IMG/VR virus record: IMGVR_UViG_3300010885_033832
Location: 1-64,000 of that record
Source of the DNA: a virus
Length of the DNA stretch: 64,000 nucleotides
Direction: 5' to 3' (one strand)
A model generated the notes under the pieces. The model saw only the letters and a list, made by a program, of their open reading frames with translations, was not told the origin of the DNA and did not search any database. Below, in pieces: positions 3,538-64,000 of the stretch (within the stretch, counting starts at the first letter, position 1; each line of letters begins with the position of its first letter). Made by a program: the position numbers and the translations under genes.

Positions 3538-3539
3538 AT

Positions 3540-43300: not shown

Positions 43301-44662
43301 ACTGCGCTTGACAAGACCCTCAATGATACTACTTACGGTCTTCTTGACGCGGTTATCGTATTCTTCTTTAGTCTCTCCTGGGCGCGCCCTGAGGTTGAAT
43401 TTAGCACTAGTCGCTAGGTTTTTAGCAAGAGTCAATGTATATCCGTAGTCTTGCTCGAGAAATTTTTGATCGGCGAGTTTGCCAAACTTTTCTTGGTTGG
43501 CCGCTGCGGCTGCTTCGCGCTCTTCCTTGGTCATAGGGGGGGAAATTGGCGTCTGGAATCCGACTGACCGCTCCCGAGCGGGGGATTTTTTAGGCTTTTC
43601 TACAATCTCGCCATCTTCAGTAATATCGACAACATCTTCTTCATCTTGATTTTTAATGTCTTTATTAGATGGCTCTTCAGGCGTGACTACTTCTGGCTCT
43701 ACTTTTGTATCTTCTTGGGCTTTTGTTTCTTTGTACTGAGCGCGAGTAGCATCAATCTTCTGCTGGAGGGCGGCGTCTTTCTTGTCGAAGTCTTTGTCCA
43801 TGGGGTCGAGGTCTTGTTGCTTACCCTCGAGGGCAACAATCTCGTCAGCGAGTTGTGCTGAGGTCTTTTCGGTCGGCTTCTTAGCTGCAGCACCCTTACC
43901 CTTGGCAGTGCCGCTTGAGAGAGCGTCCCGGAGGGCACCCTTGGCACGGTTCTGCATGGCCGCGGCTTCTTCTTTAGACTCGGGGACCTTCTCGCCAGCC
44001 TCTTCAATGAGGGTGCGGTTGACCGTGGCAATAGCGTCTACCCAGTCGTCAGCCTCGTAACTCTCTCCGGTAAGTTTGTCTTTGATGAGGAACTTGCCCT
44101 CAGACGTAGTTGTGACGTCGAAGTCGCCACCCTCAGTTTCGTAGTGACGGTTGCCATCCGAATTAGTTCCGAGGTCTTTCCACCCAAGGGGGACGTCGCG
44201 ACGAGTGATGCTGGAAAGATCAGGAGTAGCGGTCGTTACCCGAGCTCCAGCAGGAGTCTTGACTCCGGCACGCTGAAGTGCTTCGGTGGAGAGTTCGGCC
44301 TCAACCTCAGAGGTTGCGCTGACGTCGACGTCATAGAATCCAGAGCGGATCCCAGCTTCTCGAGCCTGCTTGGGGTTGACGTAAATTTCAATGTTCTTGT
44401 CACCAGAACCAGGCTGGGTGACAGTACCTGTGATACGAACGGGCTTGGCGTTACCGTTCTTGTCGCGACCGAGAAGAGCAAACAAACGACGAAGGGCGCG
44501 CTTGAGGCCTCCACCCATATAAATCCACTGACCACCGTTTTCTCCGCCTGGGTCACGGAGCTGTCGACGGGCTCGAAGTGAGAGGGCTAGGCGGGAGTTA
44601 CCACCTGCTGCGATGAGCGCCTCAATCTCGTTGAAGTCGTCGAAGTCGTTATTGTCCGTCAC
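31385..44662 (-). CDS. Giant (4425 aa) polyvalent virion-associated protein with UvrD/Rep-type SF1 helicase domain
   Basis: ARAGTGKT (motif I), LFVDEAQD (II), VGDNRQALYAFRGA (III), LTKTYRS (IV), TVHGAKGLE (V), LYVALSRA (VI); located inside the head module; GGAG RBS before GTG. Confidence 0.85.
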   Translation of the reverse strand: MTDNNDFDDFNEIEALIAAGGNSRLALSLRARRQLRDPGGENGGQWIYMGGGLKRALRRLFALLGRDKNGNAKPVRITGTVTQPGSGDKNIEIYVNPKQAREAGIRSGFYDVDVSATSEVEAELSTEALQRAGVKTPAGARVTTATPDLSSITRRDVPLGWKDLGTNSDGNRHYETEGGDFDVTTTSEGKFLIKDKLTGESYEADDWVDAIATVNRTLIEEAGEKVPESKEEAAAMQNRAKGALRDALSSGTAKGKGAAAKKPTEKTSAQLADEIVALEGKQQDLDPMDKDFDKKDAALQQKIDATRAQYKETKAQEDTKVEPEVVTPEEPSNKDIKNQDEEDVVDITEDGEIVEKPKKSPARERSVGFQTPISPPMTKEEREAAAAANQEKFGKLADQKFLEQDYGYTLTLAKNLATSAKFNLRARPGETKEEYDNRVKKTVSSIIEGLVKRSQGKKAKELYATLNGDKPAESFEDVYGKDVPDVPPVKEGTPVTAEDITDVETPGRDDSLIADVNNFQKSYKDAFKKHFNVDSKDLSRPKIKEHFKSVTGRELSDEDATKLLALRKTDAFKALEAKINQQAALSKDNQDLTREEAFNLLDAADAEITALGLDDEELQDMLLDDFRSDDLFEQVKFKKDVKSTPVATIPAADTNAPKKLPFSELRAGDVVTVDGKPVTVRSISTGVTWSGIGRDNERRGVIITFATDNPRKDLERKYENPTEIKDFDLVSRDATVPDLKKYGSFDQAIVDATPGLARRLNTNIAERRASGKALTLEQLLKEGGYAKRFDPDTNKYFVRIDERTSATDPEDHEVEVSKEVYDAFIVEEEIAATDADTATDELLSVDTSNMSYDEKVEFGQKLWDARAAAAKEQKDKTAGVEFLRKLAEIDPDMAEYYKAVDKINEWKGRPDADQTHVQNAIAALQSHYTFEVWPTLLKRYVKGTDKLPVKGAPRAKSVVPEKLLKDPVAKTATPATPATSATPADVKTAAERFVPYGEDGGTTRVTRLENGDIEIEKFGPNGQSLRLGVAVIKKKDISPSGLLGVVGGRPGESVIYHIPTGLVIQGNRKFLEAKKLTKDLDASDVDMDWGWTDGVKPYIKKTEALRDWLKARQQAQTPATPATPKVGDNVATIKDFKNLPAGSTIILRQGTNLPFRYTRSDSNDPNNLVSKGELQTNSGQWLEQAVLPSDKDITYQLGQRESTVERVGPAKPEIAPLKVGDQVTTLDELKTLPLNTVIFTPQSGRKQAMRLTVGPDGKVNGAQLLKKNTKNVWNGMVVPSEEQVAEFLKERTYTVETLPEAKAPAAPATPKPQANVLTRATKAFLLNGKTGDRVFFNRRGGKFQEVVRGDDGYWYDANNPDTGIASGEDLAAALDQGSISNLYKGEFPRNDKGVKLSSEAFQALKVEQDKIDAAKKAARTTKAPAAPAVPATPTSTAVSDDDIQEILDKYNNSIDEMQADYDAVKKDYDDGVFNDTLERKARAELVMKLLAAAIDRAKTPSGFDSPTNKAYVQNLEKRRKLVDDILNRNANGQLSLSPDRVDELTKYRDDIDFAINKSREDNVAIPTEVYNGYINSKVADLSEEETAVSSTGDPYNDLKNSLLDPDVDSALSDVKDLFDYVDELDEISDEDRQSLIEALNTLVEAVETRMRDFDDDPEVQELAQEALSDIKKQVNKLLGIEEEVDPNAFSDKDVDDLIAEMNNDVEALQAKLDQIRAAIDSGRFDDNLENKANFEKLARIHEAAIKKLKAASTATTTEDSDEEIARKLKRERLKALLGEEDGDAVLSLIDDFNSTIEGLDDLSNRQDRDDLRGYLKDIEQLVGDTPDSQEIFDLISELTDDNITLFLGDEVDSVDQLNDSVEGAEADFRINDPELDDEFYTKRDGLWFNVADGEDAVGLSSEELFAKTENGYINLQGPGDEDDETTTTTDEENLTPVTGIADVTGVPRGSRVVIRYEDDETKKNIFEFYQVREDGTTSWRRLNPATGKFFPESYTAADLIDIQKRRYDPSKLKRMEGTGQMFINQDAGIPDGAEEEVPPTSGGQGQRDTGAGQDKDKDQDKDEKAEAKETIKRFKDALNAYESFTQILNDIEEIGEVEVVYGTEKDDRGVDQPRKFFLNAENYADFVDGVNQDLTDLGQNLNDNQKDALRGLYNDYGVEMDRLKDARLSMAEKKRRIEEIMRRRKLLAGVINGKDYTEPDPEPEEGGESGQGGEQPGTGQGEGAKPGGKTPPPGGPGGPGGGGGSGGGGGGGGRRPRDKEPRGKKNWWDEYPELVEEELPINSRTDFNAPIFQDKRVRKLIDIQRRLEDAHREYNRVRKMIENADQMGIISRTELLRDFNFWRGRITILENQIAAEERKLNISIKDLDDRINEEMKSGDYVNDEGAPYSPTADRFADGPVGADPRAVFNAWQAFKDTKFMPLKVDDIISNIDYLEDRVRRAYFDAREAQKNPDASASEKAAAFANFQRAEKERSDFVTDSYKFLQRLDPNERALWDRWAYKRSVQIRKMYDENDMVGYIKHIEFFGGLIPLIELGKKGKSDSQDGQPDGRGPSGPFLPLEGNPPPKGPGALPSEPSKPEPEPSDGDGSRPSAASEDEEDYTESTNYRDFLSIPIEEFARRRKQALRKWREYQELLGELNNEKSEYANSLDNPDEQYLTDEQREILNGYSERIAKAQERQETVQRVIAAFTEASGRRPDRGRAPKQEDAEEGKGAGAALPDEIDMSISTVDDLNSATAGDIVSNGVDNFVRGSDGLWYAADDAGVSDNTRSYSSSEVFDALDAADGQSEISGSRAPFTPSLTNSERPVTSQDRNQSASRTRVTSADIFDVAPTGARISRDVIAGADGESTKGARQVSLDTYAKGEDGQWYRVSPETDLTEEDPISDAQKSALISEIDSGMIFISDKKQSLRDALSDQQNSTGTGAASRVSKSGEPDNFSKIRRGKVGGYKARTYTAEQVYQQTGITPSEQQLKIINDFGQNQSMVIVARAGTGKTSTLKLLSDMFPEHKILLAAFNRSTAEEAAARFGANVQARTLDSLGFFGVEMTLDDPNTTYVDSDLKATKRATLNAKLDLSMGAKDGRSAKLDSTSFMSAYEATELYGIEEVVISKDDKITSDIIFSDLMSGIANGFASTADRKITLDHLLPHMSSALRKKVLKDEALAWDYVKIAQRMWDENITVPITIKNKLAFSAIDGQPFSPLPVTNSMLSKIWQLSGLANVVKKVPGGSTADTLFVDEAQDLNAAQIDLVNQLAMPNEDGLAVQVVVVGDNRQALYAFRGAVNQMFKFYDQADSVADVKNGLTKTYRSPQALVDVANVPLWLMGEPLRTTSGKSDEAPKGKIFSRILPPEVLKKMTPEIQAAIKRAGGTSMPTEQVDMHIEATNTALLGVLPTYASAGRRVAINANRREEFITNIEALSLMQMRPTTRSRKEAFANHEMGVFQNYPDLRLNAPGTSGEQSIMDKYRKGGAGLSSKVIAFLRVAEEFGMISDDTKTVKEKSSDGKTIKKDVVVKAVERRQEMLRLIRQTVSPKPSYLISGQKDYVEEYEGLITPNIPQRMADLDGDGFDFEPLVPGRFKYAVTKGKSSELLNLRITGSNIGLLGFRQRLERSKRDLLADPNISDRLREELELIKFNTTDKEFEGMRIANVYPGSDTVNVLLKEAAKARSRIEALDKDKLMGDVSMPTDAEFRAAGGKPIVKQFYTSTNFALRDEDGNVLRDPDKINKAGNPSVILGEGVVELLFERNEGTKIVTVSILDGGLKYQADASVHNPLSKDALNVLGFESTYREAEKADKPTPGEFSKFYTNNLGKEDKKRTNSPNEKPSLKQNLPGLIDFKYSLGAGNLVTFGLEGAPDEEGTPTIESLRTYIVSEGSDGEDMLTLWSNGKAVGSPKPREEVVGQFIDGRAKNKESTDDLFYAVAYAQYETIRPGQTVFQMSAVDKSARTKYSALIDGTKSGDPYTDELGYDVALLTVHGAKGLEAPNVKVGDSVFAFWEVEKNADGEPKRELRDLSDDEIMQQANMLYVALSRAEEAMDIGNMARLLEIAATVEDLLQERGIDKKDLEDYDIWSTTTSAYPTDFFIEQYKEAYEEQEKGKEKGAGPASTSSRARRASRATMALPEGINLENPSVQWRSPTSTSTHYQDFPALPEPFDNSLDWRRIPGDAPFPILEKFSEEQLLGFAKFLVDRNNNPSLEIPTGDPAIEALYKRKTNLRGLYEGLIFKRLRAKENAGVVIPEVRRQFAALFDGELDKLNAYFAEPADAPEVPEVPEVPVAPDTPEVAPPTETVTPPKAPRKPRPPRKPAQPPAEPVEETPAPKASEDVLDILKSFDFLMGGDSADKPEDSGKGAGSRQAPTTGQSQLSPDTMAEIFDRYALLAQYRKAMSEGRMSVPLEYSAGGVANRYNASIEEIMQALELMGFTPDELA

Positions 44663-47563: not shown

Positions 47564-49195
47564 TTAGACCTCGGGTTCTGCAAGTGGGACAGGAGGAAGT
47601 GCCTCAGGTGGTGCTTCACCTGGGTTTACGGGTGTGGGTCCGGGAGCGCCGAGAGGCTGACCTGCGAGAGCCTGTTGGACCTCGGGTGGGATCGGAGCGG
47701 GGTTGTTAGCCTGTGCGCCCTGACGGATTGTCTCCATAACCTCGGGTGCGAACGCCGAGAGCATGGCTTCGGTGAGTTCGGGCGTGATAACGGCGCGAGA
47801 CTGAAGCAGGCGGAGCGTAAGTTCAGTTGGCGTGGGTGCATCGGCGTCGGAGAAGCCGTGGGCACGTCGCCACGTCTGGTACGAGATCGCCATGTTGCTA
47901 AATCCAGCATCTGCATCAGCCGCGCGGTCGTTTCGAGTCGAAACTTCGGCGGGGTCATACCAAACTACAACGCGAGAGATCTCTTCGTCGATGAACCCGA
48001 GGCTTTTGAGGTAGGGGCGGAGGTAGACAACGGTCAACGCGTCAGACAGGAGCAACATGATGGGTTCGATGTGTGCCTTGTAGAGGCTTTCATCAATTTG
48101 GACGGCGTTGGAGTACTTGACGTTGGCAAGACCAGTAACGGTGTCCTTAGGAACGTCGAGGCCCTGCAAGATACGCTCCAAAACTCGGTCTGAACGCTGA
48201 GCGAGGGCTGGGTCAAAGGAACGCTCAAACTTAAACTGCTTAATCTTGTCGGCAAGCTCGGCTGGGCCGCGAATAATGAGTGGCACGACGGCGCTCGCAG
48301 AGGATTCGTCCGAGATCGGAGTCGTCATGGCGTCAACGAGTTGATCTTCGAAGTCGTCCTCCTGCTCCTCAGGCAAAATGTTGGTTCCTTGCTCGTCATC
48401 GTCCGAGTAGGGGTAGTCAGCATCGGCAGAAGCGGCCAAAGAGAGGCCGTCGGGGAGGTAGAGTGCTCCGGCGTTGAGGCGCGAGCGTGCTGTAGCGCGG
48501 AAGGTGCGGTTCAAGAGGAGAAGTTCGGCGCACAGGTCGAGGACACCGCGCATTGAAGAGTCTGGCTCGTCCGAGAAGCGGGGGTGAGCTCGCCAAATGC
48601 GTCCGACGAAGGCTGACTTAGAGATAGGGATAGAATCTCCTGCTGGTGAGTCGCGTCGCTGGAGGATGGAGTAGTTTCCACGTGCGTCCATGACTAATTC
48701 GTCGGTGGAACGGATATCCCAGCTCTCAAGGAGGCCAGAACCAATCATTTCGGGACGCTGGACGAGGTAGCACTCGCCTGTGACGCAGAGATTGAGAGCA
48801 GCGTCGCGCAAGAGGCCAGCCTGACCACCAAAGGTTGAGCTGAGGCGAGCAAGACCACGTTCTGCAGCCTCCGCCATACCGTCGGGGATCATATCGGACG
48901 AACGAGCGTTGACTGGAGTCTCGGCGGGGTTCTCAATAACGGCTGCGTAGAGCTTGATTCGGGAAACGATAGACGCAACGAGGTTGAAGGCATACTTGAC
49001 TTCACCAATAGCGTCGTAGTATTCCCACGCCTCTTGTTGCCACTGCGTTCCGCCCGATGCCTTGCGACGTTTGAAGGCTTCGCCCTCGGCTTTGTCGTCG
49101 AGACGCATGCGAGTAGCAGCAGCGGTCAGTCCTCGGGGGGCTGCGTAGGGGGCAGCGGTGAAGGGGATGCCCGAGTCCTTGCGAAAAACGCCCAC
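47564..49195 (-). CDS. Portal protein
   Basis: 543 aa; WQQEAWEYYDAIGEVKYA, RIWRAHPR---EPDS and RILQGLD-P motifs of actinophage portals. Confidence 0.88.
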   Translation of the reverse strand: MGVFRKDSGIPFTAAPYAAPRGLTAAATRMRLDDKAEGEAFKRRKASGGTQWQQEAWEYYDAIGEVKYAFNLVASIVSRIKLYAAVIENPAETPVNARSSDMIPDGMAEAAERGLARLSSTFGGQAGLLRDAALNLCVTGECYLVQRPEMIGSGLLESWDIRSTDELVMDARGNYSILQRRDSPAGDSIPISKSAFVGRIWRAHPRFSDEPDSSMRGVLDLCAELLLLNRTFRATARSRLNAGALYLPDGLSLAASADADYPYSDDDEQGTNILPEEQEDDFEDQLVDAMTTPISDESSASAVVPLIIRGPAELADKIKQFKFERSFDPALAQRSDRVLERILQGLDVPKDTVTGLANVKYSNAVQIDESLYKAHIEPIMLLLSDALTVVYLRPYLKSLGFIDEEISRVVVWYDPAEVSTRNDRAADADAGFSNMAISYQTWRRAHGFSDADAPTPTELTLRLLQSRAVITPELTEAMLSAFAPEVMETIRQGAQANNPAPIPPEVQQALAGQPLGAPGPTPVNPGEAPPEALPPVPLAEPEV

Positions 49196-50323: not shown

Positions 50324-51113
50324 GGTTTCATTTTACGCCATATGTTCAGGACGGATAAAACTGAACAGAAGACGATGTTTTAGTACCTTTACGATAAATG
50401 CTTTTGGCCGGAGAGACGGATACGCGCTATTTTCGGGCCTTCGCGAAACGTTTCCAAAACACCGACGCCCCCCTTGCGCCACGTCGCCAAGTGTGGTAGG
50501 GGGTCAGTCTTTTCTAGAATGGTCGACCCCCTCCCCCTCCCCTGCCAATCATCATGTCGTGCCTGTCGACGACGACGAGGTCGAGGTGGTCATGATGCCT
50601 GACCTTGATGACAGGGGGGGTGGGGGTAGGGGCTGGCTAAGTCACCACCTAGTCAACGAGGTTGAGTCACCACCTGCCCACGCCCACCACCATCGAGCAT
50701 GCCTAACATCACTTGATGAGTGTGACAGTCACGAGGGGGCTGGGCTAGGTGATAGACATCAAGGCTAGTCGACTAGGCTACCTGCCTCGACGATGCCTCG
50801 AGGTGACCCTGACCACGACCCTGCCCAGCCTGCCAGCCCGACCACCCTGCCAGCCCACCCTGCCAGATAGGCTAGCCGCATGACCTTGATGGTCGATACA
50901 TATTGTCAGGGACCATGACCACTACACGAGAACACGTCGAGAGATGCATCGAGGCAGGGGGGTGGATGCATCGACAGGTATGCACATCAAGGTTGATGGA
51001 CTCGACTCGACCATGCTCACCCGACCGACCATCGAGGGGATGCCCCTAGGTACCCATCACCTCGAGGTACATCACCTAGGTAGGACGGCGTAAAAGGCTC
51101 ACCGCAAGGGGTG

Positions 51114-54657: not shown

Positions 54658-54888
54658 CTATACGCCCATGGCCTCCAGCGTCAAGCTAAGACACGCTGAG
54701 CACGAGATCTGCACATCACCATCGTCGGCCATCACGGCCCATCTCTCGGTGCCTTGAGCATCCTGACACCCAGCGCAGGCAATACTTCTACCCTCGTCGA
54801 CGATGCCTGACTTCTCAACGGCGTCGAGGTCACAGCGAAGTCCGGCGTCGAACTTGACGACCTCGAACGCGCGTACGGTCATGCTCAT
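54658..54888 (-). CDS. Small CxxC...CxxC zinc-binding protein (76 aa)
   Basis: ATG overlaps the terminase TGA; CAGC and CSAC motifs. Confidence 0.6.
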   Translation of the reverse strand: MSMTVRAFEVVKFDAGLRCDLDAVEKSGIVDEGRSIACAGCQDAQGTERWAVMADDGDVQISCSACLSLTLEAMGV

Positions 54889-56303
54889 CGGACCCTGAAC
54901 TTCGATCCGCCAGCACCCTGCTGACCGATGCCGGGCAGGGTGAATCGGCGACCTGCTGGTGACTTGGCTGATAGCCCACCACCGAGGAATCCAGCGGGTG
55001 GCTTGATGAGCAACGCGGTCAGTGCATGCACGAGGGCGTCGACGCGGTCGGGGGACTTGCCCTCGCCAGGGATCCACGACATCATCTGGGACTCGAGCTG
55101 AGGGAACACGCCCACGTGGTGGACACGGCCCTGCTCATACGCGAGGGTGATCGGCTCAGCGCGGAGTGCCTTGCCATACTTGGAGTGCACCTCGAGGACC
55201 TTGATCGTGGGGTCGATTGTGTGGATGGCGTTCTTGACGAGCGCCCCACCCTGATTGACCTCGGCGACAACGGGGCATCCCCACTTCTTGGCCGCGGCGA
55301 CAACGGCCTGTGCCCACACGGTGGGGGACCCGAGGATAGATGTATCCTCGAGTACCCATGACTGACGCTTATACAAGTCTCGTTCGCCCGTTGAGCCTAC
55401 CACGACGATGCCACACTCGTCCTTGGGGCTCTCGGCGACGGATGGGTCGACACCGATCACGCGCAGTGGCATCTGTGGCGGGTAGGCACCCTGTCGATAG
55501 TTGTCGATGATGTCTTCGGTCCAGAGCGCACCATCAACGGAGTCGAGCATCTCACCATAGAGCTCTTGAGCGGCGAGGGAAGTACCACCATAGACACCGA
55601 GCATGGTATCGAGGTACGCGCTCGACAGGTTCCCGGCGTTGTCCATCGTCGATCCGCGAGTGACACGGACGCGGTTGGGGTGTTCCTCGGATTCCTTGAG
55701 AAGTTCGCGGAGCATGGCCACGCGCTTCGGTGTGGTCGTGATCATGATCTTGGGGACGGCTCCGAGACGCGTAGCGATACGGAGGTTCTGCCACGCGGTC
55801 AGTCCCGAGTCGTCGGGCATCTGTCGCCAAGCGGCGGCCTCGTCGGCGAGTGACGCGTGGAACTGTGGACCACGGAGAAGGTTGGGTTCGTCGGCGGAGA
55901 ACGTCGTCGCGATGGTTCCGTTGGGCCACGTCAGTCGTCGCTTCGACGGCTCGTACAGTGGCATCTCACTCGGTGGTGAGATCGACATAATCCCTGACTG
56001 TCCTTCGACCACAACGTCGCGGGCGTCGGCGGCTGTACGGGCAACGATGGCGATACGCTTCGGCCCTGTCTTACTGATGTCGCGGGCTTGCTCTCTGAGC
56101 CACTCGGCTCCGGTCCGGGTCTTACCCCAACCACGACCCGCGAGGGCAATCCAGATGTTCCAGTCACCATCCGGCGCGTGTTGTTCGGGGCGACCCCAGA
56201 ACGACCAATCCCACAGCAGACCCTCGGGGTCCATACCTGCCATCATCCGAGCGCGATCGTCGGGGGATAGCTCAGCGATTACCTGCGCGAGTGACTTCGA
56301 CAT
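54885..56303 (-). CDS. terL: Terminase large subunit
   Basis: AGRGWGKT Walker A, LRGPQF--SLADEAAAW Walker B, TTTP, VIGVDPS and DRVDAL nuclease motifs. Confidence 0.93.
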   Translation of the reverse strand: MSKSLAQVIAELSPDDRARMMAGMDPEGLLWDWSFWGRPEQHAPDGDWNIWIALAGRGWGKTRTGAEWLREQARDISKTGPKRIAIVARTAADARDVVVEGQSGIMSISPPSEMPLYEPSKRRLTWPNGTIATTFSADEPNLLRGPQFHASLADEAAAWRQMPDDSGLTAWQNLRIATRLGAVPKIMITTTPKRVAMLRELLKESEEHPNRVRVTRGSTMDNAGNLSSAYLDTMLGVYGGTSLAAQELYGEMLDSVDGALWTEDIIDNYRQGAYPPQMPLRVIGVDPSVAESPKDECGIVVVGSTGERDLYKRQSWVLEDTSILGSPTVWAQAVVAAAKKWGCPVVAEVNQGGALVKNAIHTIDPTIKVLEVHSKYGKALRAEPITLAYEQGRVHHVGVFPQLESQMMSWIPGEGKSPDRVDALVHALTALLIKPPAGFLGGGLSAKSPAGRRFTLPGIGQQGAGGSKFRVR

Positions 56304-57925: not shown

Positions 57926-58137
57926 TGTGTTTCCTTTCGTCGCGGTCGGCGTTTCCTCCCGCGTAATCAGTCTATCGGCGGGCACCGACATGTAATAGCC
58001 TCCCCTCCCCGACTGTGGCCGGAATCAGGCCGGCCATCGATGGCCACAACGTCACGACGACGAGCGCCGAAGTCGCCGCGGACAGTCGACGCAGACGACG
58101 AAACGCCTACCCTTTCGGGTAGGCGTTTCGGAGGGAC

Positions 58138-58383
58138 TCACGCCTGAGGGTAGGCGCGAGTGGACAGGCTCTCGGTGCTCTGAGCGAGTCGGGCAAACGT
58201 CTTCGCGAGACGGTACAGTGCGTCTCCGACGACGACGCGGACGCGGTACTCGGCGTCGACCTTCGGCGTGAAGGGGTAATCCTCCGTGATGGTCGCAACG
58301 ATGTCGGCATAGCACGTCGCGCAGACTGCGTCGTACGCTCCGTCGGCGAAGTTGGCAGAGCAAAGGCGCTCGTCGTGGTACAT
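58138..58383 (-). CDS. Cassette gene: hypothetical protein (81 aa)
   Basis: GAAAGGA RBS, MYHDERLC...CATC; hairpin at 58099-58130. Confidence 0.7.
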   Translation of the reverse strand: MYHDERLCSANFADGAYDAVCATCYADIVATITEDYPFTPKVDAEYRVRVVVGDALYRLAKTFARLAQSTESLSTRAYPQA

Positions 58384-58530
58384 GGTCGATTCCTTTCGGT
58401 TGGGGAGGCGTGTTCCTCCGTGACTCCACTCTATTGGCGAGCGCCGACATGTAACGGTATCCCCTCCCCATCGGCGAGCGCCGCACAACGACAAACAGCC
58501 TCCCCGAAGGGAGGCTGTCGGTCGTCCAAG

Positions 58531-58725
58531 TCAGGCGAAGTCGGGGAGGTGATACTTTGCGGCGAGAGCGGATTCCATTGCTTGGAGCGAGGCGATGGAC
58601 TCGGCGATGTGGTCGCGCATATCTCCGACCTCGTTCGCTTTCCACAGCACCATCGCGTCGGTGAGTGACGCGGCGGCGGCCGCGTAGTTTGACAGCACAG
58701 CGCTGTCGGTAGCGTCGTACAACAT
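58531..58725 (-). CDS. Cassette gene: hypothetical helical protein (64 aa)
   Basis: GAAGGAG RBS; hairpin at 58495-58518. Confidence 0.7.
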   Translation of the reverse strand: MLYDATDSAVLSNYAAAAASLTDAMVLWKANEVGDMRDHIAESIASLQAMESALAAKYHLPDFA

Positions 58726-58836
58726 GGTGACTCCTTCGATTCGGGAGGCGTGTTCCTCCGTGATATCAGACTACGGCACGGCACGGACAAACAACAACCT
58801 CCCCTCCCCGAATCGGGAGGAGAGGTTGTCGGCGCG

Positions 58837-59031
58837 TCAGAGGATTATCGGCTCAACGACTAGGCGCGTTTCGTTCAGCGCACCGCAACCGCACCGATAC
58901 CATTGCGCGATTCGACCATCGGTGCGCCAGATGATATGAATGGTCGGGTGTTCGTGACCGACTCGGCATCGTGGGCAACGGTGATTCAGCGGGGAACGGC
59001 GTTCCTCCGTCTGGATGATATCGTCTAACAT
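58837..59031 (-). CDS. Cassette gene: zinc-ribbon-like protein (64 aa)
   Basis: CPRC...CGC; GAAAGGA RBS. Confidence 0.7.
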   Translation of the reverse strand: MLDDIIQTEERRSPLNHRCPRCRVGHEHPTIHIIWRTDGRIAQWYRCGCGALNETRLVVEPIIL

Positions 59032-59128
59032 TCGGGATTCCTTTCGTTCGTGATTCCAGACTACGGCCGCAACGGCATAGACGGCGATAGCCCCCCTGAC
59101 GGTGTGTCAGAGGGGCTACCGTATGGCG

Positions 59129-59365
59129 TTACGCTTGGCGAGCGTATCGGGCAACCGCATCGGCAATTCGCGTACCGATGTAGTCGGGCGTGAGCATCGA
59201 ACGGCGAGGCGCGCGTGCTTGGGCGAACCGTCCAGAGGTGTTGCCGACCTCGTGAACGATGACAACATAATCGCTACGCGAGATGTTGCCGAGGTAGCGG
59301 AGTAGGTACTCCGCACCCTCGTAGGTGAACGGCGTGAGGGTGCCGCGTTTGAGTGTGATGGACAT
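59129..59365 (-). CDS. Cassette gene: hypothetical protein (78 aa)
   Basis: AAAGGAGG RBS; flanked by promoter and hairpin. Confidence 0.72.
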   Translation of the reverse strand: MSITLKRGTLTPFTYEGAEYLLRYLGNISRSDYVVIVHEVGNTSGRFAQARAPRRSMLTPDYIGTRIADAVARYARQA

Positions 59366-59456
59366 TGTGTCCTCCTTTCGTTTTCAGACTACGGCATACC
59401 CCCGACACGAAACAACCAACCCCCACCGCATAGGCGGTGAGGGTTGGCGTTTGGCG

Positions 59457-59687
59457 TTACCGCGAGCGCCGAAGACTACGGCGGTACACTTCTTCCCCGA
59501 CATTCCAACTGAGTAGGGCAGAGGCGACAACGATACAACCGACAACCATAACGCGGTCGAATGTAGCGTTGTAGGACAGTCCCGACATCTCGGCGGAACG
59601 GGCGAGGCTATCGGCGGTAAGCGCGGTGACAACCGCAACCGCATACAGCCCCAGCGCCATAAGGGCGCGGAATCGACGAATGGACAT
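59457..59687 (-). CDS. Cassette gene: two-TM membrane protein (76 aa)
   Basis: Two hydrophobic segments; AAAGGAG RBS. Confidence 0.68.
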   Translation of the reverse strand: MSIRRFRALMALGLYAVAVVTALTADSLARSAEMSGLSYNATFDRVMVVGCIVVASALLSWNVGEEVYRRSLRRSR

Positions 59688-59790
59688 TCCATTCTCCTTT
59701 CGTTGGTGATATCAGATTACAACGGCGAGCGCCGAAACGGCAACAACCCCCCACCGCATAAGCGATAGGGGGTTGTCGGCGGCGACTACT

Positions 59791-59895
59791 TCATCGGTTG
59801 AAGACGAAGTCGAGGTCGTGCGTGTGGTACGCAATTCCCTCGGTGTCGCGAGTACCGCACTCGGGGCACGGGTCGGTGAGGTCACCAGTAGCCAT
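59791..59895 (-). CDS. Cassette gene: CxxC microprotein (34 aa)
   Basis: AAGGAGG RBS; MATGDLTDPCPECG...HTHD. Confidence 0.6.
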   Translation of the reverse strand: MATGDLTDPCPECGTRDTEGIAYHTHDLDFVFNR

Positions 59896-60017
59896 AAGAG
59901 TCACCTCCTTGGGGCAACGGCGTGGGGCGTGTCCCCCACGCCGACAACGATACGCGGCCCCACGCCGACAACGCAACAACCCCCCACGCCGATTGGCGTG
60001 AGGGGCTGTTGGTGGCG

Positions 60018-60419
60018 TTACTCGGCGGTGGCTTCGGCGGTAACGGGGGCGTTCGCGTTGGACACTACAACGCGCTTGGCTTCAGCGGTACACCAGAACA
60101 GGTCGTGACCGAGCGTTTCCGCTTCGATTTCGACATTCGTTCCCGTGCGGTCGTCGGTCTGCCAATCGCGAACGCGCAAGCGACCGACGACTACGATACG
60201 GTCGCCCTTGTTCAGCGACGCCATTGAGTTCACGGCGAGAGCGCGGAACGCCGTGACCGTGTACCAATTGGTCGAAGCGTCAAGCCACTTTTCAGTAGCC
60301 TTGTCGTATCGTCGCTGTGACGACGCGAGGCGGAATGAAGTGATGGGCAGACCTTCTGCCGTCACGATATGGCGTGGTGTCGTGGCGATAAGCCCCGTCA
60401 CCGTGAGCGTGTCGCTCAT
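60018..60419 (-). CDS. ssb: Single-stranded DNA-binding protein (short, no acidic tail)
   Basis: OB-fold motifs SFRLASSQRRYD, WYTVTAF--LA-N, KGDRIVVVGRL, EIEAETLGHDL; start at MSDTLTV. Confidence 0.92.
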   Translation of the reverse strand: MSDTLTVTGLIATTPRHIVTAEGLPITSFRLASSQRRYDKATEKWLDASTNWYTVTAFRALAVNSMASLNKGDRIVVVGRLRVRDWQTDDRTGTNVEIEAETLGHDLFWCTAEAKRVVVSNANAPVTAEATAE

Positions 60420-60532
60420 GTGATTCTCCCTTGCTTGTGTGAGCCGTGTTGCCCACACCTCAACGATAGCGCGGCCACACCCGACAACGCAACAACCCCC
60501 CCACCGCATAAGCGATAGGGGGTTGTCGGCGG

Positions 60533-60712
60533 TTAGACAGGTTCGTTGTTGATTGTTCCGTTGGCGCAGGCTTGGTTGTATTCCTCAACTAGTCGCGTTG
60601 CGTTGTCCACTACGATAAAGTTCGCACCTACTCCCTCACCGAAGATACCCTCTTCGGTAATCGCGCGAGTGATGAGCGTGTGGGCTTGTTTCAGGATTTC
60701 GTAATCCGTCAT
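60533..60712 (-). CDS. Cassette gene: hypothetical protein (59 aa)
   Basis: Manual translation MTDYEILKQAHTLITRAITEEG...; GAAAGGA RBS; not in the ORF track. Confidence 0.65.
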   Translation of the reverse strand: MTDYEILKQAHTLITRAITEEGIFGEGVGANFIVVDNATRLVEEYNQACANGTINNEPV

Positions 60713-60780
60713 TTCGTTCCTTTCGTTCGGTTGAGAGTGTAGCGCGCCACCGTGTTCCCAACGGTGGCGCGCCGTGTCAC

Positions 60781-60963
60781 CTATTCGGTGACGGTGGCGT
60801 TCGCCGTGTTATCGGCGTTAGCCGTAGAGAGCTTTTCGATTTGGGCGTTGATTTCGCCCAACCGCATAGCGTTCTCCACCATCAACTCTGCCACCGTGTT
60901 TCGCATTTCTTTTAGGGTGGCGATTGAGTTTTCCAGAAACTCAATCTGTTCTTGCTTGTCCAT
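60781..60963 (-). CDS. Cassette gene: coiled-coil protein (60 aa)
   Basis: MDKQEQIEFLENSIATLKEM...; GAAAGGT RBS. Confidence 0.65.
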   Translation of the reverse strand: MDKQEQIEFLENSIATLKEMRNTVAELMVENAMRLGEINAQIEKLSTANADNTANATVTE

Positions 60964-61071
60964 TGGACACCTTTCGATTAGCGGGGCGTGTTCCCCACAT
61001 TCACAACGATACGCCGAACGCCGAACAAACGCCAACACCCCCCACCTTTCGGCGGGGGGTGTCGCGTTCCG

Positions 61072-61197
61072 TTATTTCAGTTTGTCCAAGATTGCCATTA
61101 TCTCGGCGCGTTGTGCTTCGGGCAACGCTTCGATTCGTTCCGCAGCGTCGGGGACGAAAAGGCTATCCAAATCGTCGGGGTTAGTCCAGTCGAACAT
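61072..61197 (-). CDS. Cassette gene: acidic microprotein (41 aa)
   Basis: MFDWTNPDDLDSLF...; GAAAGGA RBS. Confidence 0.62.
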   Translation of the reverse strand: MFDWTNPDDLDSLFVPDAAERIEALPEAQRAEIMAILDKLK

Positions 61198-61302
61198 TGT
61201 TTCCTTTCGGGGGCGGTTCCCCCATACCGCAAAGGTAGCACCGGCATCGGCCAGAACGCAAACACCCCCCACACCGTTAGGCGTAGGGGGCGTTCGTTCG
61301 CG

Positions 61303-61485
61303 TTACTTGTTCTTGGACTTGGTGAACGGTGAGTGGTTCATCGCGTAGATGTATTGGCGTTGACGGCGATTGAACCGTGGGCGGTGCTTGAGCAGATAGA
61401 ACCAGTTGATCGTGAATAGCGTGACGGCGATACCCGTCACGAAACTCGCGACAACCGTCACGATGAATATCGTGTCGTTGGACAT
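61303..61485 (-). CDS. Cassette gene: single-TM protein (60 aa)
   Basis: MSNDTIFIVTVVASFVTGIAVTLFTINWFYLL followed by a basic tail. Confidence 0.65.
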   Translation of the reverse strand: MSNDTIFIVTVVASFVTGIAVTLFTINWFYLLKHRPRFNRRQRQYIYAMNHSPFTKSKNK

Positions 61486-61550
61486 TGTTTCCCTCTCGTG
61501 AGAGTTGGGAACGGTGTGACCCTCTCGCGAGAGCCACACCGTTCGATGGA

Positions 61551-61838
61551 CTAGGGGAGGCGAACCGAAGTCACCGAAGCGACATTGGTGAACTCGCCTT
61601 TGGATACCGCTTCCGCGATAGCAGGGTACGCCGAGAGAATGGATTTGGTGTCCGTTGTCTTGCGTTCGGTGACGGTTACGCGAGCGATTGTCTGCCCTTT
61701 GTATTCCACCGTTCCCTCGCCGACCGCGCCGATGATGAGCGCGCGGAGCGTTTCACTCTGCTTGGTGAGTGTGTCGATTTCCGCCTTGAGAGCGCGGAAC
61801 TCGGCGACCGCGTCAGCGACCTTTTTGGTTACGACCAT
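61551..61838 (-). CDS. Cassette gene: hypothetical protein (95 aa)
   Basis: MVVTKKVADAVAEFRALKAEID...; GAAAGGA RBS. Confidence 0.7.
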   Translation of the reverse strand: MVVTKKVADAVAEFRALKAEIDTLTKQSETLRALIIGAVGEGTVEYKGQTIARVTVTERKTTDTKSILSAYPAIAEAVSKGEFTNVASVTSVRLP

Positions 61839-61950
61839 TGTCGTGTCCTTTCGTTGGGAGAGGGCGTGTCCCTCTCGTGATTCCACTCTACGCGGCCACA
61901 CCCGACAAACGCAAACACCCCCCACCTTTCGGTGGAGGGTGTTCGTGGCG

Positions 61951-62205
61951 TTAGCCGATGTAGCGAGCGTAAACGGTAACGCGCTTACTGCGGTTGGAGT
62001 TCTTGCGCGAAGTCGCTTCAAACGACCCAGCAGGGGTGAATCCAATCAAGATACCTCGCTTGATTGACACCACATAACTTGCTGGTGCGTTGTCGCTAAC
62101 GACGGCCCATTCTCCTGGATTTGCTTTGAGGGCTTTAGCAATCGCCCCGTACTTACCTGTTTGCACAGCGCGCTTCGGCGGTGCTTCCCAGCGGATTTTT
62201 ACCAC
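61951..62205 (-). CDS. Cassette gene: putative DNA-binding protein (84 aa)
   Basis: WEAPP...LKANPGEWAVV...FEATSR...VYARY pattern common in actinophages; AAAGGAG RBS. Confidence 0.68.
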   Translation of the reverse strand: MVKIRWEAPPKRAVQTGKYGAIAKALKANPGEWAVVSDNAPASYVVSIKRGILIGFTPAGSFEATSRKNSNRSKRVTVYARYIG

Positions 62206-62313
62206 GTCTCTCCTTTGCGAGGGGCGTGTCCCCTCTCGGTTCTACTTTACGACCAGAGCGAACACAACGCAAACAACCCCCCCACCCGATAGGGCAGGGG
62301 GGCGCGGTTGGGG

Positions 62314-62406
62314 CTAGTACCCGAACACCCACTCACCTTTGTGTTCGCAGGTGAAGAGCGCACCGCACTCGTCGCACGGCACTAGCACAATCTCTTCGTT
62401 GTCCAT
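62314..62406 (-). CDS. Cassette gene: CxxC microprotein (30 aa)
   Basis: Manual translation MDNEEIVLVPCDECGALFTCEHKGEWVFGY; AAAGGAG RBS, own promoter and hairpin. Confidence 0.58.
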   Translation of the reverse strand: MDNEEIVLVPCDECGALFTCEHKGEWVFGY

Positions 62407-62516
62407 CGGTTCTCCTTTGTTGGCAGGGCGTGTTCCCCACATCTCCACCGTACGCGATCGTGGGGCGAACCGACAAACACCCCCCACCCTTTCGGGTGAG
62501 GGGCGTTCGGTTCAGG

Positions 62517-63005
62517 CTACCAACTTGCTCGGTAGGTGAAGTCACAATCGGCGAGTGACTTGTTGGCGAGTATCTGCGAGAGTTCGTCACGAGTGGTTTC
62601 CAAGTCCTTCCAGTACCACTCGTCAATCTCGGTCGAACCGAAGAAGAAGCCAGCCTGTGGTGGCAGGTGTTCTTCCGCGATTGCCGTTCGGTTTGCTTCG
62701 CTCGCGCCGAGAATGATGTCGCACAGGTTTCGCAACGCTTCCAAGCCGTCACGCGGTACGCCGATTTCTTGGCACTCGTCAAGCCCATCAGCGAAGTTGC
62801 TCACGAACCATTGGTGAATGGCGTTCGCTTTCCGCCAATACATTACCGTCACAGCGAGGGTCGCAGACGGCGAGTATTCGGGCAGTATCGCAGGGTCGAA
62901 CCCTGCCGTTTCCAGCACACTCGCAAACTGCTCGCGGTCTGCTTCGGGTCGGTGTTCCCAACCCGATAGGTACTTCTCGGCAGATAGATACATATCCAGT
63001 CCCAT
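62517..63005 (-). CDS. Cassette gene: conserved phage protein (MGLDMYL...YWRKANAIH-WF family)
   Basis: Recognisable widespread phage family: YWRKANAIHQWFV, LPPQAGFFFGS, YRASW. Confidence 0.8.
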   Translation of the reverse strand: MGLDMYLSAEKYLSGWEHRPEADREQFASVLETAGFDPAILPEYSPSATLAVTVMYWRKANAIHQWFVSNFADGLDECQEIGVPRDGLEALRNLCDIILGASEANRTAIAEEHLPPQAGFFFGSTEIDEWYWKDLETTRDELSQILANKSLADCDFTYRASW

Positions 63006-63114
63006 TATGTTTCCTTTGCTTGGTGTGAACCGTGTTGCTCACATTTCCAAACTACGGCACCGGCGGCCACAACGCAAACAACCCCCCACCGTGAGGTGAG
63101 GGGTTGCTCGGCGG

Positions 63115-63321
63115 TCACTCGTATTGAGCGTGGATTACATCCCAGCAGGGGAAGCAGTACGGCTCTCCGTTGTCGCGGTGAGTTTTCTTACCACAGGCAT
63201 CACAGGGAACTTTCCCCTCTCCACCGTCATAGCACGAATAGCAGGTGTAACCGTCTTCTTCGAGAATGTCCTCGTCGAGTTGGTCGCAGGTACAGGTCGG
63301 GTTGTTCGGGTTCTTTTTCAT
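63115..63321 (-). CDS. Cys-rich zinc-binding protein (68 aa)
   Basis: CTC, CYSC, CDAC, CFPC; ATG overlaps the upstream TGA. Confidence 0.65.
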   Translation of the reverse strand: MKKNPNNPTCTCDQLDEDILEEDGYTCYSCYDGGEGKVPCDACGKKTHRDNGEPYCFPCWDVIHAQYE

Positions 63322-63449
63322 CAGTTCCCCTCGCAATCGTGTCCGTAGGACAGTTCCTGCTCGTCAACCTCGTTGGTCGGGTCGAACACTCGCGAGCATT
63401 CGACACACTTGAGCAGAAGTCCTGCTCGCGTAATGGTGAGTTCCATCAT
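63321..63449 (-). CDS. Cassette gene: CxxC...HxC microprotein (42 aa)
   Basis: Manual translation MMELTITRAGLLLKCVECSRVFDP...YGHDCEGN; GAAAGGA RBS. Confidence 0.62.
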   Translation of the reverse strand: MMELTITRAGLLLKCVECSRVFDPTNEVDEQELSYGHDCEGN

Positions 63450-63514
63450 CTCGGTTCCTTTCAGGGGCGGTTCCCCTCTACTTCCAATCTACGCGATCGG
63501 GGCGCAAACGCAAA

Positions 63515-63608
63515 GTACCCCCCGAGCGAAAGGGATAACTCTCGGGGGGCGTTTCTTTGTGTGTGGCGTTACCGTCAAGGGGTAAACACGATTCCCTGAC
63601 AACCACTC
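63515..63608 (-). ncRNA. Candidate ~90-nt small RNA (ORF-less cassette)
   Basis: Extended -10 TGTGG-TAGCCT (63614-63624), hairpin GUCAGGG/CCUUGAC with a loop containing CGUGUU, terminator hairpin at 63518-63549, no RBS-led ORF inside. Confidence 0.45.
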
Positions 63609-63691
63609 CGTCTAGGCTACCACACCGTGACGCGCGCAAAATACCAAAACAACGAACCCCCCTACCGAAGTAGAGGGGTTCGCGGTGACCG

Positions 63692-64000
63692 TCAGACGGT
63701 GAGGTTGCTTGCTTGGATTTCAGCGAGCGAGCGCGGTTCCCAGTAGAGGTCGCGTTCGACCATCATTCCCATCGGACCGACCACGCCTGAGAGTTCCGAG
63801 AGCGAGAAGTATCCCAACTCCATCTCGAAGCCGTTGACCAGACCGAAGAACTGGTCTTCGCCATCGAACTCGGTTGCGTACCAAGTCCAGTTCGCCCAGG
63901 GGGTGAAGTACTTGACCGTAGCCATCGTTTCCTCAAGCGACTTGTTCTCGTTCGTGTAGAGCGGTGGAAGTGCTGCGCGCACCTCGTCGTTCATCAGTTC
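63692..64000 (-). CDS. DUF2958-like protein (5' end may lie outside the window)
   Basis: LPPLY, VKYFTPWANWTWYATE, FFGLV-GFE-ELGYFSL-EL, ERDLYW. Confidence 0.8.
   Translation of the reverse strand, partial: ELMNDEVRAALPPLYTNENKSLEETMATVKYFTPWANWTWYATEFDGEDQFFGLVNGFEMELGYFSLSELSGVVGPMGMMVERDLYWEPRSLAEIQASNLTV

Follow-up and report, generated by a model that had tools for sequence, protein, structure and literature searches.

We analysed the first 64,000 bases (the window) of the IMG/VR virus record IMGVR_UViG_3300010885_033832, with particular attention to short hairpins in the potential 5' untranslated regions (5' UTRs) of its small genes. The record is a single contig of 95,416 base pairs (bp) with 53% G+C. 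It is a tailed-phage genome with nearly all genes on the minus strand, and it encodes a large terminase (TerL), a portal protein and an AAA ATPase. Its portal protein shares 69% identity with that of the uncultured 'Actinomycetia phage DSL-LC01' and 63% with that of Microbacterium phage Pumpernickel, and portals of Arthrobacter, Gordonia and Mycobacterium phages are more distant kin. The sequencing runs that contain this DNA are freshwater or lake metagenomes. The source, an actinophage of at least 95 kb, is a freshwater virus that has not been cultured, and its host can be placed only as a freshwater actinobacterium.

The last part of the window belongs to an array of small, self-contained gene cassettes (Table 1). 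Each cassette consists, in order, of an intrinsic terminator, a -35 element, a spacer, a -10 element of the form TAnnnT, 6 nucleotides (nt), a leader hairpin, a GAAAGGA Shine-Dalgarno (SD) sequence and a small open reading frame (ORF). The -35 consensus is TTGCGT, and lies 16-18 nt from the -10 element, which often has CG ahead of it. In most units the -35 element overlaps the T-rich tail of the preceding gene's G+C-rich terminator. The SD sequence is complementary to the 3' tail of actinobacterial 16S rRNA, and 0-7 nt separate it from the hairpin. Three cassettes, whose ATG codons are at 59031, 59365 and 59687, lack the hairpin and share the promoter and SD sequence of the others. A generic sigma-70 scan did not detect the array promoters, because TTGCGT and TAnnnT are too far from TTGACA and TATAAT. 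Among 17 array proteins scanned against Pfam, SSB is the sole recognized family.

Eleven leader hairpins with related loops had been noticed earlier from the letters of the window. We find all eleven on the minus strand where they had been placed, with the arms and loops as described, and the hairpin at 61208 can be drawn one pair longer (TGGGGG/CCCCCG). The hairpins at 58404 and 58744 are identical, flanks included. To estimate chance occurrence, we searched 2000 dinucleotide-preserving shuffles for hairpins whose stem has 5 pairs or more and whose loop reads (A/G)ACACG, ACACG or AACCG; the mean was 0.29 and the maximum 4, compared with 11 in the actual sequence of 58301-63600. Across the whole genome, hairpins with these loop types that follow a -10-like hexamer are confined to 58404-63477. 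All eleven are thus real, but the set is not complete. A loop-agnostic search for the order -10, hairpin, SD, ORF finds ~35 promoter-proximal leaders on the minus strand, from 58404 to ~76491 of the genome, so that the series extends past the end of the window. The additional ~24 hairpins, at 64017-76491 of the genome, have loops of other families, and stems vary within each family.

A relative of this phage, IMGVR_UViG_3300027499_000013, has a 99% identical TerL and a collinear array with ~86-92% DNA identity, in which several cassettes have been gained, lost or replaced. Hairpins of both phages were aligned to assess covariation. The group with 6-nt loops comprises 18 sequences, of which 17 are distinct. 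Its inner five pairs form in 17/17 and its sixth in 14/17, and two-sided changes occur at 7/8 pairs. The covariation value of this group is 0.506, versus 0.206 in shuffles (reached in 0/500), and sliding the 3' partner out of register gives no more than 0.15. The group with 5-nt loops gives 0.548 versus 0.248 in shuffles (again 0/500). Individual cases illustrate how the changes arise. At 60981, GTGGGG/CCCCGC here corresponds to GTAGGG/CCCTGC in the relative, which is a full compensatory change from G-C to A-U. The 3' arm at 63024 is GTTCACA here and GCTCACA in the relative, so that a G:U pair here is a G-C pair there, and the paralogous hairpins at 60437 and 63024 differ by G-C, G:U and A-U steps.

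These G:U pairs also reveal the strand. The summed stem length is 141 bp with Watson-Crick pairs only, and becomes 180 bp when G:T is allowed on the mRNA-sense strand but only 144 bp when it is allowed on the opposite strand. The stepwise changes and the sense-strand G:T pairs argue for an RNA structure on the message strand rather than a double-stranded operator or a template-strand hairpin, and we consider it very likely that the hairpin is selected at the RNA level. The original prediction of a functional RNA motif, whose G:U pairs work on the mRNA strand and whose loop is constrained, is thereby upheld by covariation, strand asymmetry and loop identity (see below). Its description of the stems as fully co-varying is, however, somewhat too strong. 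The covariation is significant, but most stems are forms of GNGGGG/CCCCNC with differences at one to three pairs.

The hairpins are predicted to form the very 5' ends of the messages. With +1 taken as the seventh base after the -10 element, the predicted transcription start lies, relative to the first paired base, at -3 to +2 nt in 11/11 hairpins; for the 63024 hairpin it is 63042. In the three longest stems the outer one to three drawn pairs are predicted to be untranscribed, leaving 6-7 bp. Minimum-free-energy folds of the predicted leaders (~35 units) contain the hairpin and an unpaired SD sequence and leave 0-3 nucleotides at the 5' end unpaired. Many stems in this larger set open with GUG and close with a CAC that directly abuts the SD sequence. 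A role as 5' stabilizer, one of the functions proposed originally, fits this placement, and the stabilizing effect itself would follow from known properties of such structures.

The loop is the most conserved element of the block. We compared all 13 hairpin-bearing cassettes of 58.4-64.3 kb, which were picked by position and not by loop, to avoid circularity. Mean pairwise identity is 0.81 in the loop, although optimized gap placement for 5-nt loops biases this value slightly upward; it is 0.67 in the -10 hexamer, 0.62 and 0.55 in the two arms, 0.37 in the promoter spacer and 0.39 in the four bases after the hairpin. The earlier claim of a conserved loop is borne out by these values, which point to a constraint beyond that expected of a stabilizer acting by structure only.

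Loop classes change along the array. AACACG, GACACG, ACACG and AACCG loops occur at 58.4-63.5 kb, and AAACA, AAACG, (AGG)AAACG, AAATC and GAAACG loops at 64-67 kb. Further upstream are NGG triloops closed by A-U (four or five, spanning 66-71 kb), two ACCC loops (71-72 kb), and ACTT, AGGTC, ACATC and AGACG. Since loops vary across the ~35 leaders, the conserved feature that all share is a hairpin at the transcript 5' end, and the AAC(A)CG loop defines a subfamily. Two 12- to 13-bp hairpins without a promoter (60741-60773 and ~61520-61548, minus strand) are each found between the cistrons of a two-gene cassette, just ahead of the second SD sequence, and could be processing or stabilizing elements for the distal cistron. 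The loop of the former, UGGGAAC (UUGGAAACG in the relative), again contains AAC.

In the relative, 20/20 hairpin-bearing units found by promoter and SD sequence alone have AACACG, ACACG, AACCG, AAACG or AAACA loops, and these units include leaders of genes that have no counterpart in this genome. The relative's ortholog of the 61208 hairpin has the loop AAACG. In one strain, represented by a contig of a 2025 lake metagenome, a new hairpin, GGCAG-ACACG-CTGCC, takes the place of the stretch that separates two hairpins here. The same loops before non-homologous genes, together with this new hairpin, indicate that the loop travels with the leader design and not with particular genes. Contigs of related strains from lake metagenomes join 58403 to 58755, 60725 to 62420, 60996 to 62471 and 63103 to 63323, deleting or replacing whole cassettes. 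Cassette insertions and deletions between the relative and this genome are bounded by repeated terminator-promoter sequence, in the manner of the shuffling described for PeSL cassettes (see below).

A covariance model of the 6-nt group recovers 9/11 hairpins at E<0.05; the 61208 hairpin scores at E 2.8 and the AACCG hairpin at 63463 is missed. The model recovers all members in the relative. Neither 50 kb from DSL-LC01 nor 32 kb from Pumpernickel yields a match at E<0.1, and the same holds for two of three more distant relatives identified through TerL. The third (L002, with a TerL of 70% identity) has one weak, insertion-bearing match at E 0.08. Apart from this match, the motif is thus confined to the two arrays among the phage relatives searched. 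No existing Rfam family accounts for it, as nothing in the whole window reaches a gathering score and the three hits in 58000-64000 are at chance level (E 0.1-0.55). The region matched none of 50,697 phage records in a Megablast search.

A promoter-hairpin-SD detector reports 22 units in 12.5 kb of the relative versus 0-2 per locus in 79 other phage loci (those in IMG/VR that encode a homolog of the 162-amino-acid array protein), and 19 units in 420 kb of JGI metagenome loci. DSL-LC01 has 3-5 promoter-proximal hairpins with other loops, and Pumpernickel has none in its first 32 kb. The relatives with TerL at 70% identity use TATAAT promoters and have occasional hairpins with the loops AAACG, AAACCCCA or GAAC. 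The stringent pattern GGGAACACGCCC-N(2-18)-GAAAGGA occurs at 10 loci in IMG/VR, of which one is the known relative and the other nine have no arrays and appear chance-like. In 185,579 prokaryote genomes the same pattern gives 76 single hits scattered over all phyla, versus ~74 expected by our own estimate; a host regulon represented in those genomes is therefore not the source of the motif. The motif is lineage-specific and dense, in two arrays.

One cassette of the array encodes no ORF, and is the only one of its kind. It is flanked by terminators at ~63652-63683 and ~63516-63550. The predicted RNA is ~95 nt long and consists of a hairpin, GUCAGGG paired with CCCUUGAC, whose 13-nt apical loop is AAUCGUGUUUACC (63581-63593), followed by an A/C-rich linker and the terminator. 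The fold is stable, with a z score of about -2.5. The loop contains CGUGUU (63585-63590), the exact complement of AACACG, and its UGUUU complements AAACA and, with one G:U pair, AAACG. It can form at least 5 contiguous pairs with 10/13 leader loops using Watson-Crick pairs only, or with 11/13 if G:U is allowed, a result matched by random or shuffled 13-mers in 6e-4 to 1.2e-3 of trials. On both sides the complementary sequence resides in a predicted hairpin loop, which is apical and 13 nt long in the ORF-less RNA and 5-6 nt long in the leaders. In the relative, the core of the candidate small RNA (sRNA) is identical and the leader loops are alike. A second non-coding copy of CGUGUU, at 50931, is in a repeat-rich region and looks unrelated.

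Table 1. Leader hairpins and other features of the cassette array and its surroundings. Positions are those of the window unless marked as genome positions; minus-strand features read from high to low coordinates.
Feature	Position (strand)	-10 element; predicted +1	Start codon; SD	Covariance-model score (bits)	Remarks
Hairpin GGAGG-AACACG-CCTCC	58404..58419 (-)	TAGAGT 58428-58433; +1 58421	ATG 58383; SD 58392-58397	28.3	
Hairpin GGAGG-AACACG-CCTCC	58744..58759 (-)	TAGTCT 58768-58773; +1 58761	ATG 58725	30.0	
Hairpin CGGCGTGGGG-GACACG-CCCCACGCCG	59918..59943 (-)	TATCGT 59947-59952; +1 59940	ATG 59895	29.0	Predicted transcribed stem 7 bp
Hairpin GTGTGGGC-AACACG-GCTCACAC	60437..60458 (-)	TATCGT 60463-60468	ATG 60419	33.6	One G:U pair; precedes SSB gene
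Hairpin GTGGGG-AACACG-CCCCGC	60981..60998 (-)		ATG 60963	33.1	One U:G pair
Hairpin TGGGGG-AACCG-CCCCCG	61208..61224 (-)		ATG 61197	11.7	Adjoins SD
Hairpin GAGAGGG-ACACG-CCCTCTC	61858..61876 (-)	TAGAGT 61885-61890	ATG 61838	17.8	
Hairpin GAGGGG-ACACG-CCCCTC	62219..62235 (-)	TAAAGT 62244-62249	GTG 62205	20.0	
Hairpin GTGGGG-AACACG-CCCTGC	62423..62440 (-)	+1 62440	ATG 62406	31.6	Two G:U pairs; predicted +1 is the first base of the hairpin
Hairpin TGTGAGC-AACACG-GTTCACA	63024..63043 (-)		ATG 63005	27.9	One G:U pair; precedes 162-amino-acid protein
Hairpin AGGGG-AACCG-CCCCT	63463..63477 (-)	TAGATT 63486-63491	ATG 63449		Adjoins SD
ORF-less cassette, candidate trans-acting RNA	~63510-63605 (-)	Extended -10 TGgTAGCCT	No SD		Own terminator
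Array segment of self-contained cassettes	58380..64000 (-)				Array runs on to ~76.5 kb of the genome
Long-stemmed A-NGG-U triloops	~66641, 67595, 68177, 70773 (genome)				
Two GTG(A/C)C-ACCC-G(T/G)CAC hairpins	71251, 72043 (genome)				
Large terminase	54885-56303				
Portal protein	47564-49195				

We propose a two-layer function, to which we assign a probability of roughly one half. In this proposal, 5'-terminal stem-loops protect or insulate the 5' ends of early mRNAs, and the AAC(A)CG loop is in addition a docking site, whose best candidate partner is the RNA of the ORF-less cassette. Host-type promoters would fire 0-2 nt before the drawn stem, or a few nucleotides inside it, so that each message begins with a G+C-rich hairpin of 5-7 bp that is followed by the unpaired GAAAGGA. 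The first layer would apply to all ~35 leaders. Each 5' end would leave so few nucleotides unpaired that neither pyrophosphate removal nor 5'-end-dependent cleavage by RNase E or RNase J could begin, which would block decay through an RppH-type pyrophosphohydrolase and these nucleases. The hairpin may also insulate a standard SD sequence from whichever ORF occupies the cassette, which would suit an array of exchangeable, PeSL-like cassettes (PMC4122927). 5'-terminal stem-loops are established mRNA stabilizers, and B. subtilis RppH needs a 5' end with at least 2 nucleotides unpaired (PMC3997798). Protection of the 5' end is a probable role for the leader hairpins, judging by their predicted position and folds. 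Mycobacterial RNase E cleaves preferentially at single-stranded RN↓CNU (PMC10641625). The A/C-rich leader loops contain A↓C steps comparable to this preference, an observation on which we build nothing.

The second layer would apply to the terminase-proximal block, where the constrained AAC(A)CG loop would dock a trans-acting factor. The CGUGUU(U) of the ORF-less RNA could form a kissing complex of 5-7 bp with most leaders of the block. This interaction might control these leaders jointly, for example by shutting off early genes through exposure of their 5' ends or recruitment of an RNase. The original prediction listed a binding site for an RNA regulator among its options, and loop complementarity now supplies a concrete candidate in the ORF-less cassette, with the pairing itself a conjecture from the two sequences. 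In-silico support suggests an RNA partner for the loop. That the partner is this particular sRNA is a tentative proposal, and so, with slightly more caution, is the full scenario in which a ~95-nt phage RNA kisses the 5'-terminal stabilizer hairpins of at least 10 separate early mRNAs and switches the block on or off together.

Several observations weigh against the two-layer proposal. The ~24 other leaders of the array carry unrelated loops, and a pure stabilizer needs no conserved loop, so that AAC(A)CG could be a trait of the subfamily. Adjacent cassettes share variants of the -10 element (TATCGT three times, TAGTCT three times and TAGTTT four times), and these shared variants, together with the one identical pair of units, show that duplication or gene conversion adds to the similarity. 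The two AACCG loops (2 of the 11) have no contiguous pairing to the candidate sRNA. CGUGUU is not enriched, with 13 minus-strand copies in the genome versus ~23 expected. The promoter of the candidate sRNA has no good -35 element and rests on its extended -10. A run of 65 identical nucleotides crosses the sRNA core in the two phages, but ranks only ~18th among exact runs between them, and we therefore do not count it as evidence of selection. Contigs from a single metatranscriptome run fall inside gene bodies only, such that the starts of the leaders rest on prediction. Finally, searches through TerL, through the 162-amino-acid protein in IMG/VR and in JGI metagenomes yielded no array of intermediate divergence in which loop and sRNA might be seen to change together.

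Some of these observations would be expected if the hairpins were purely structural stabilizers or insulators. The AAC(A)CG loop would then have no partner and would be shared through tandem duplication and gene conversion of terminase-proximal cassettes, perhaps helped by a slight bias towards A/C-rich loops, which are unable to mispair with G-rich or C-rich arms. Such an origin agrees with the clustering of loop classes by position, with the -10 variants shared by neighbors and the identity of the 58404 and 58744 units, with the other loops that serve in the same array, and with the fact that strains and species differ by cassette insertions and deletions bounded by promoter repeats. However, an unconstrained loop should drift faster than the paired arms, and identity is instead higher in the loop than in the -10 element, the spacer or the bases after the hairpin. 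The loop is also found before non-homologous genes in the relative, and on new stems in another strain, and its exact complement is found in the apical loop of the sole ORF-less cassette. We regard a structure-only role as rather unlikely. Similarity between leader stems and upstream terminator stems (at 59918 and 58744) was also considered as possible 5'-3' pairing, and was set aside as low-complexity G/C similarity or shared origin.

The conserved loop might instead be read by a protein. A phage early protein or a host RNA-binding protein could repress or activate translation beside the SD sequence, or could be loaded onto polymerase in the manner of lambda N and boxB, allowing read-through of each cassette terminator into downstream late genes. 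A short G+C-rich stem with a conserved A/C-rich loop of 5-6 nt is a typical format for recognition by proteins, as in boxB and the MS2 and PP7 operators. The hairpins lie within 7 nt of the SD sequence, every cassette ends in an intrinsic terminator, and all genes as far as those for the terminase and the structural proteins lie on one strand. Moreover, many small array proteins have no assigned function, and several have CxxC pairs. On the other hand, the Pfam scan, which covered 17 array proteins and not the remainder of the genome, matched no protein to an N-like, antiterminator or RNA-binding family, although profiles cover such proteins poorly. The chance-level frequency of the motif in prokaryote genomes also counts against a motif taken from a host regulon. 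A boxB-like antitermination signal, which had been offered originally, is contradicted by the loops AACACG, GACACG, ACACG and AACCG, which are not GNRA-like. A nut site with boxA and boxB is likewise contradicted, since 0-2 nt between the predicted +1 and the hairpin leave no room for boxA, and the sequence after the hairpin is variable up to the SD sequence. Antitermination of the N type also uses one or two nut sites per genome, versus one hairpin per gene here. Recognition by a protein, for which the array proteins scanned offer no candidate, is quite improbable in any of these forms.

Least probable is a function in DNA, as an operator covering +1 to +20, as an N4-type single-strand hairpin promoter or as an attC-like site for cassette recombination. 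An inverted repeat does overlap the predicted start site, the cassettes look mobile, some strain joints (58403 to 58755 and 60996 to 62471) are at or beside hairpins, and the phage has a 4425-amino-acid protein that is mostly without assigned function. Yet the arms vary while the center is conserved, the reverse of a dimer operator, and only on the non-template (sense) strand does the pairing use G:T. Every hairpin already has a good host-type promoter in front of it. The boundaries of insertions and deletions between the two phages are in repeated promoter and terminator sequence and not specifically in the hairpin, and at 16-26 nt the hairpins fall well below attC sites in length. Promoters of the N4 type are template-strand hairpins with 3-nt loops, which a giant virion RNA polymerase reads. 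The N4 model was rejected because the strand is wrong, the loops are 5-6 nt, and the 4425-amino-acid protein has a UvrD-type helicase domain and no RNA-polymerase match.

Both 5' stabilizer hairpins and PeSL-type cassettes are already known kinds of element, and what is added here is the constrained AAC(A)CG loop in the terminase-proximal block. The E. coli ompA and papA leaders are 5'-terminal stem-loop stabilizers (Emory, Bouvet & Belasco 1992, as cited in PMC3997798). As in those leaders, the hairpin here is predicted to be at the very 5' end, with few unpaired nucleotides, and is followed by an accessible ribosome-binding site. However, ompA and papA are single genes whose stabilization is independent of the loop, whereas here a comparable, putative stabilizer heads ~35 phage cassettes, and the loop is constrained in one block.

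The PeSL cassettes of T4-like phages (PMC4122927) resemble the present ones in that small early genes are bounded by a terminator stem-loop and an early promoter, and in that cassettes are inserted and deleted at repeats. The array under study has the same fusion of terminator stem-loop to promoter, and its insertions and deletions are also at repeats, although this likeness concerns the array and not the leader hairpin. PeSL is a terminator-promoter unit of phages with Gram-negative hosts; here, an extra hairpin lies downstream of the -10 element, inside the predicted transcript, in phages of Actinobacteria.

Lambda and P22 boxB are likewise promoter-proximal, G+C-rich hairpins of the 5-bp class, with a conserved purine- or A/C-rich loop of 5-6 nt, upstream of terminators. 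The P22 boxB loop, GACAA, can be compared with GACACG. The leader hairpins differ from boxB in having no GNRA-like signature and no boxA, and in occurring once per gene and not once or twice per genome.

Other motifs are found just upstream of many gene starts in actinophages, namely SAS/ESAS in Cluster K mycobacteriophages and Cluster EF Microbacterium phages, and 17- to 18-bp inverted repeats in Clusters O and EG. Their function is not known (PMC7302621, PMC3203893). The EF SAS (GGGAAAGGACCCC) contains the GAAAGGA seen here, and the GTAGAG at the center of its ESAS resembles the -10 sequence (cg)TAGAGT. However, SAS and ESAS are conserved in sequence, and the EG and O repeats are conserved in their arms, whereas here conservation is limited to the loop and changes in the arms are compensated.

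Loop-loop (kissing) interactions underlie antisense control by CopA/CopT, RNAI/RNAII and OxyS-fhlA, and P1 and P7 phages have an anti-leader RNA, c4. The candidate sRNA resembles these antisense RNAs in exposing a loop that is complementary to a target mRNA loop or leader, and a single RNA of this sort could address many messages. The putative target differs, as it is the 5-6-nt loop of a 5'-terminal stabilizer hairpin and not a ribosome-binding site.

Other features of the array and the genome deserve mention. Tiny cassette proteins of 30-68 amino acids with one or two CxxC pairs, which are zinc-ribbon-like, are encoded on the minus strand at 58837-59031, 59791-59895, 62314-62406, 63115-63321 and 63321-63449; none of them matches a Pfam family above threshold. 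Several cassette promoters (59953-59980, 60469-60495 and 61891-61915, minus strand) have the form TGTCGG(G/C)GTG, 8-9 nt, TAnnnT, and resemble the motif of actinobacterial RecA-independent (PafBC) DNA-damage promoters. The 4425-amino-acid ORF (31385-44662, minus strand) matches a known family, the UvrD/REP-type helicases, only at residues ~2968-4032. Its ~2900 N-terminal residues are unassigned, and a helicase is its sole PDB match. Finally, ~790 nt at 50324-51113 (minus strand) contain no convincing ORF and are dense in short direct and inverted repeats, including CTCGATGCATC, CATCAAGG, GGTGAT/GGTGGT runs and G-rich blocks. This region is between ATPase/CobT-like genes and genes upstream of the portal gene, and might be a packaging or replication signal.

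The timing of the dozens of tiny host-takeover genes in large lytic actinophages is little understood. If the two-layer proposal is correct, the design of terminator, promoter, hairpin and SD sequence would explain how newly inserted genes are expressed at once, and its leaders would be compact, portable 5' parts for use in Actinobacteria. Early messages would then be under collective post-transcriptional control through their 5' hairpins. If the ORF-less RNA is indeed the partner of the loop, this would be one-to-many RNA control aimed at a cap-like hairpin at the 5' end, and not at the ribosome-binding site.

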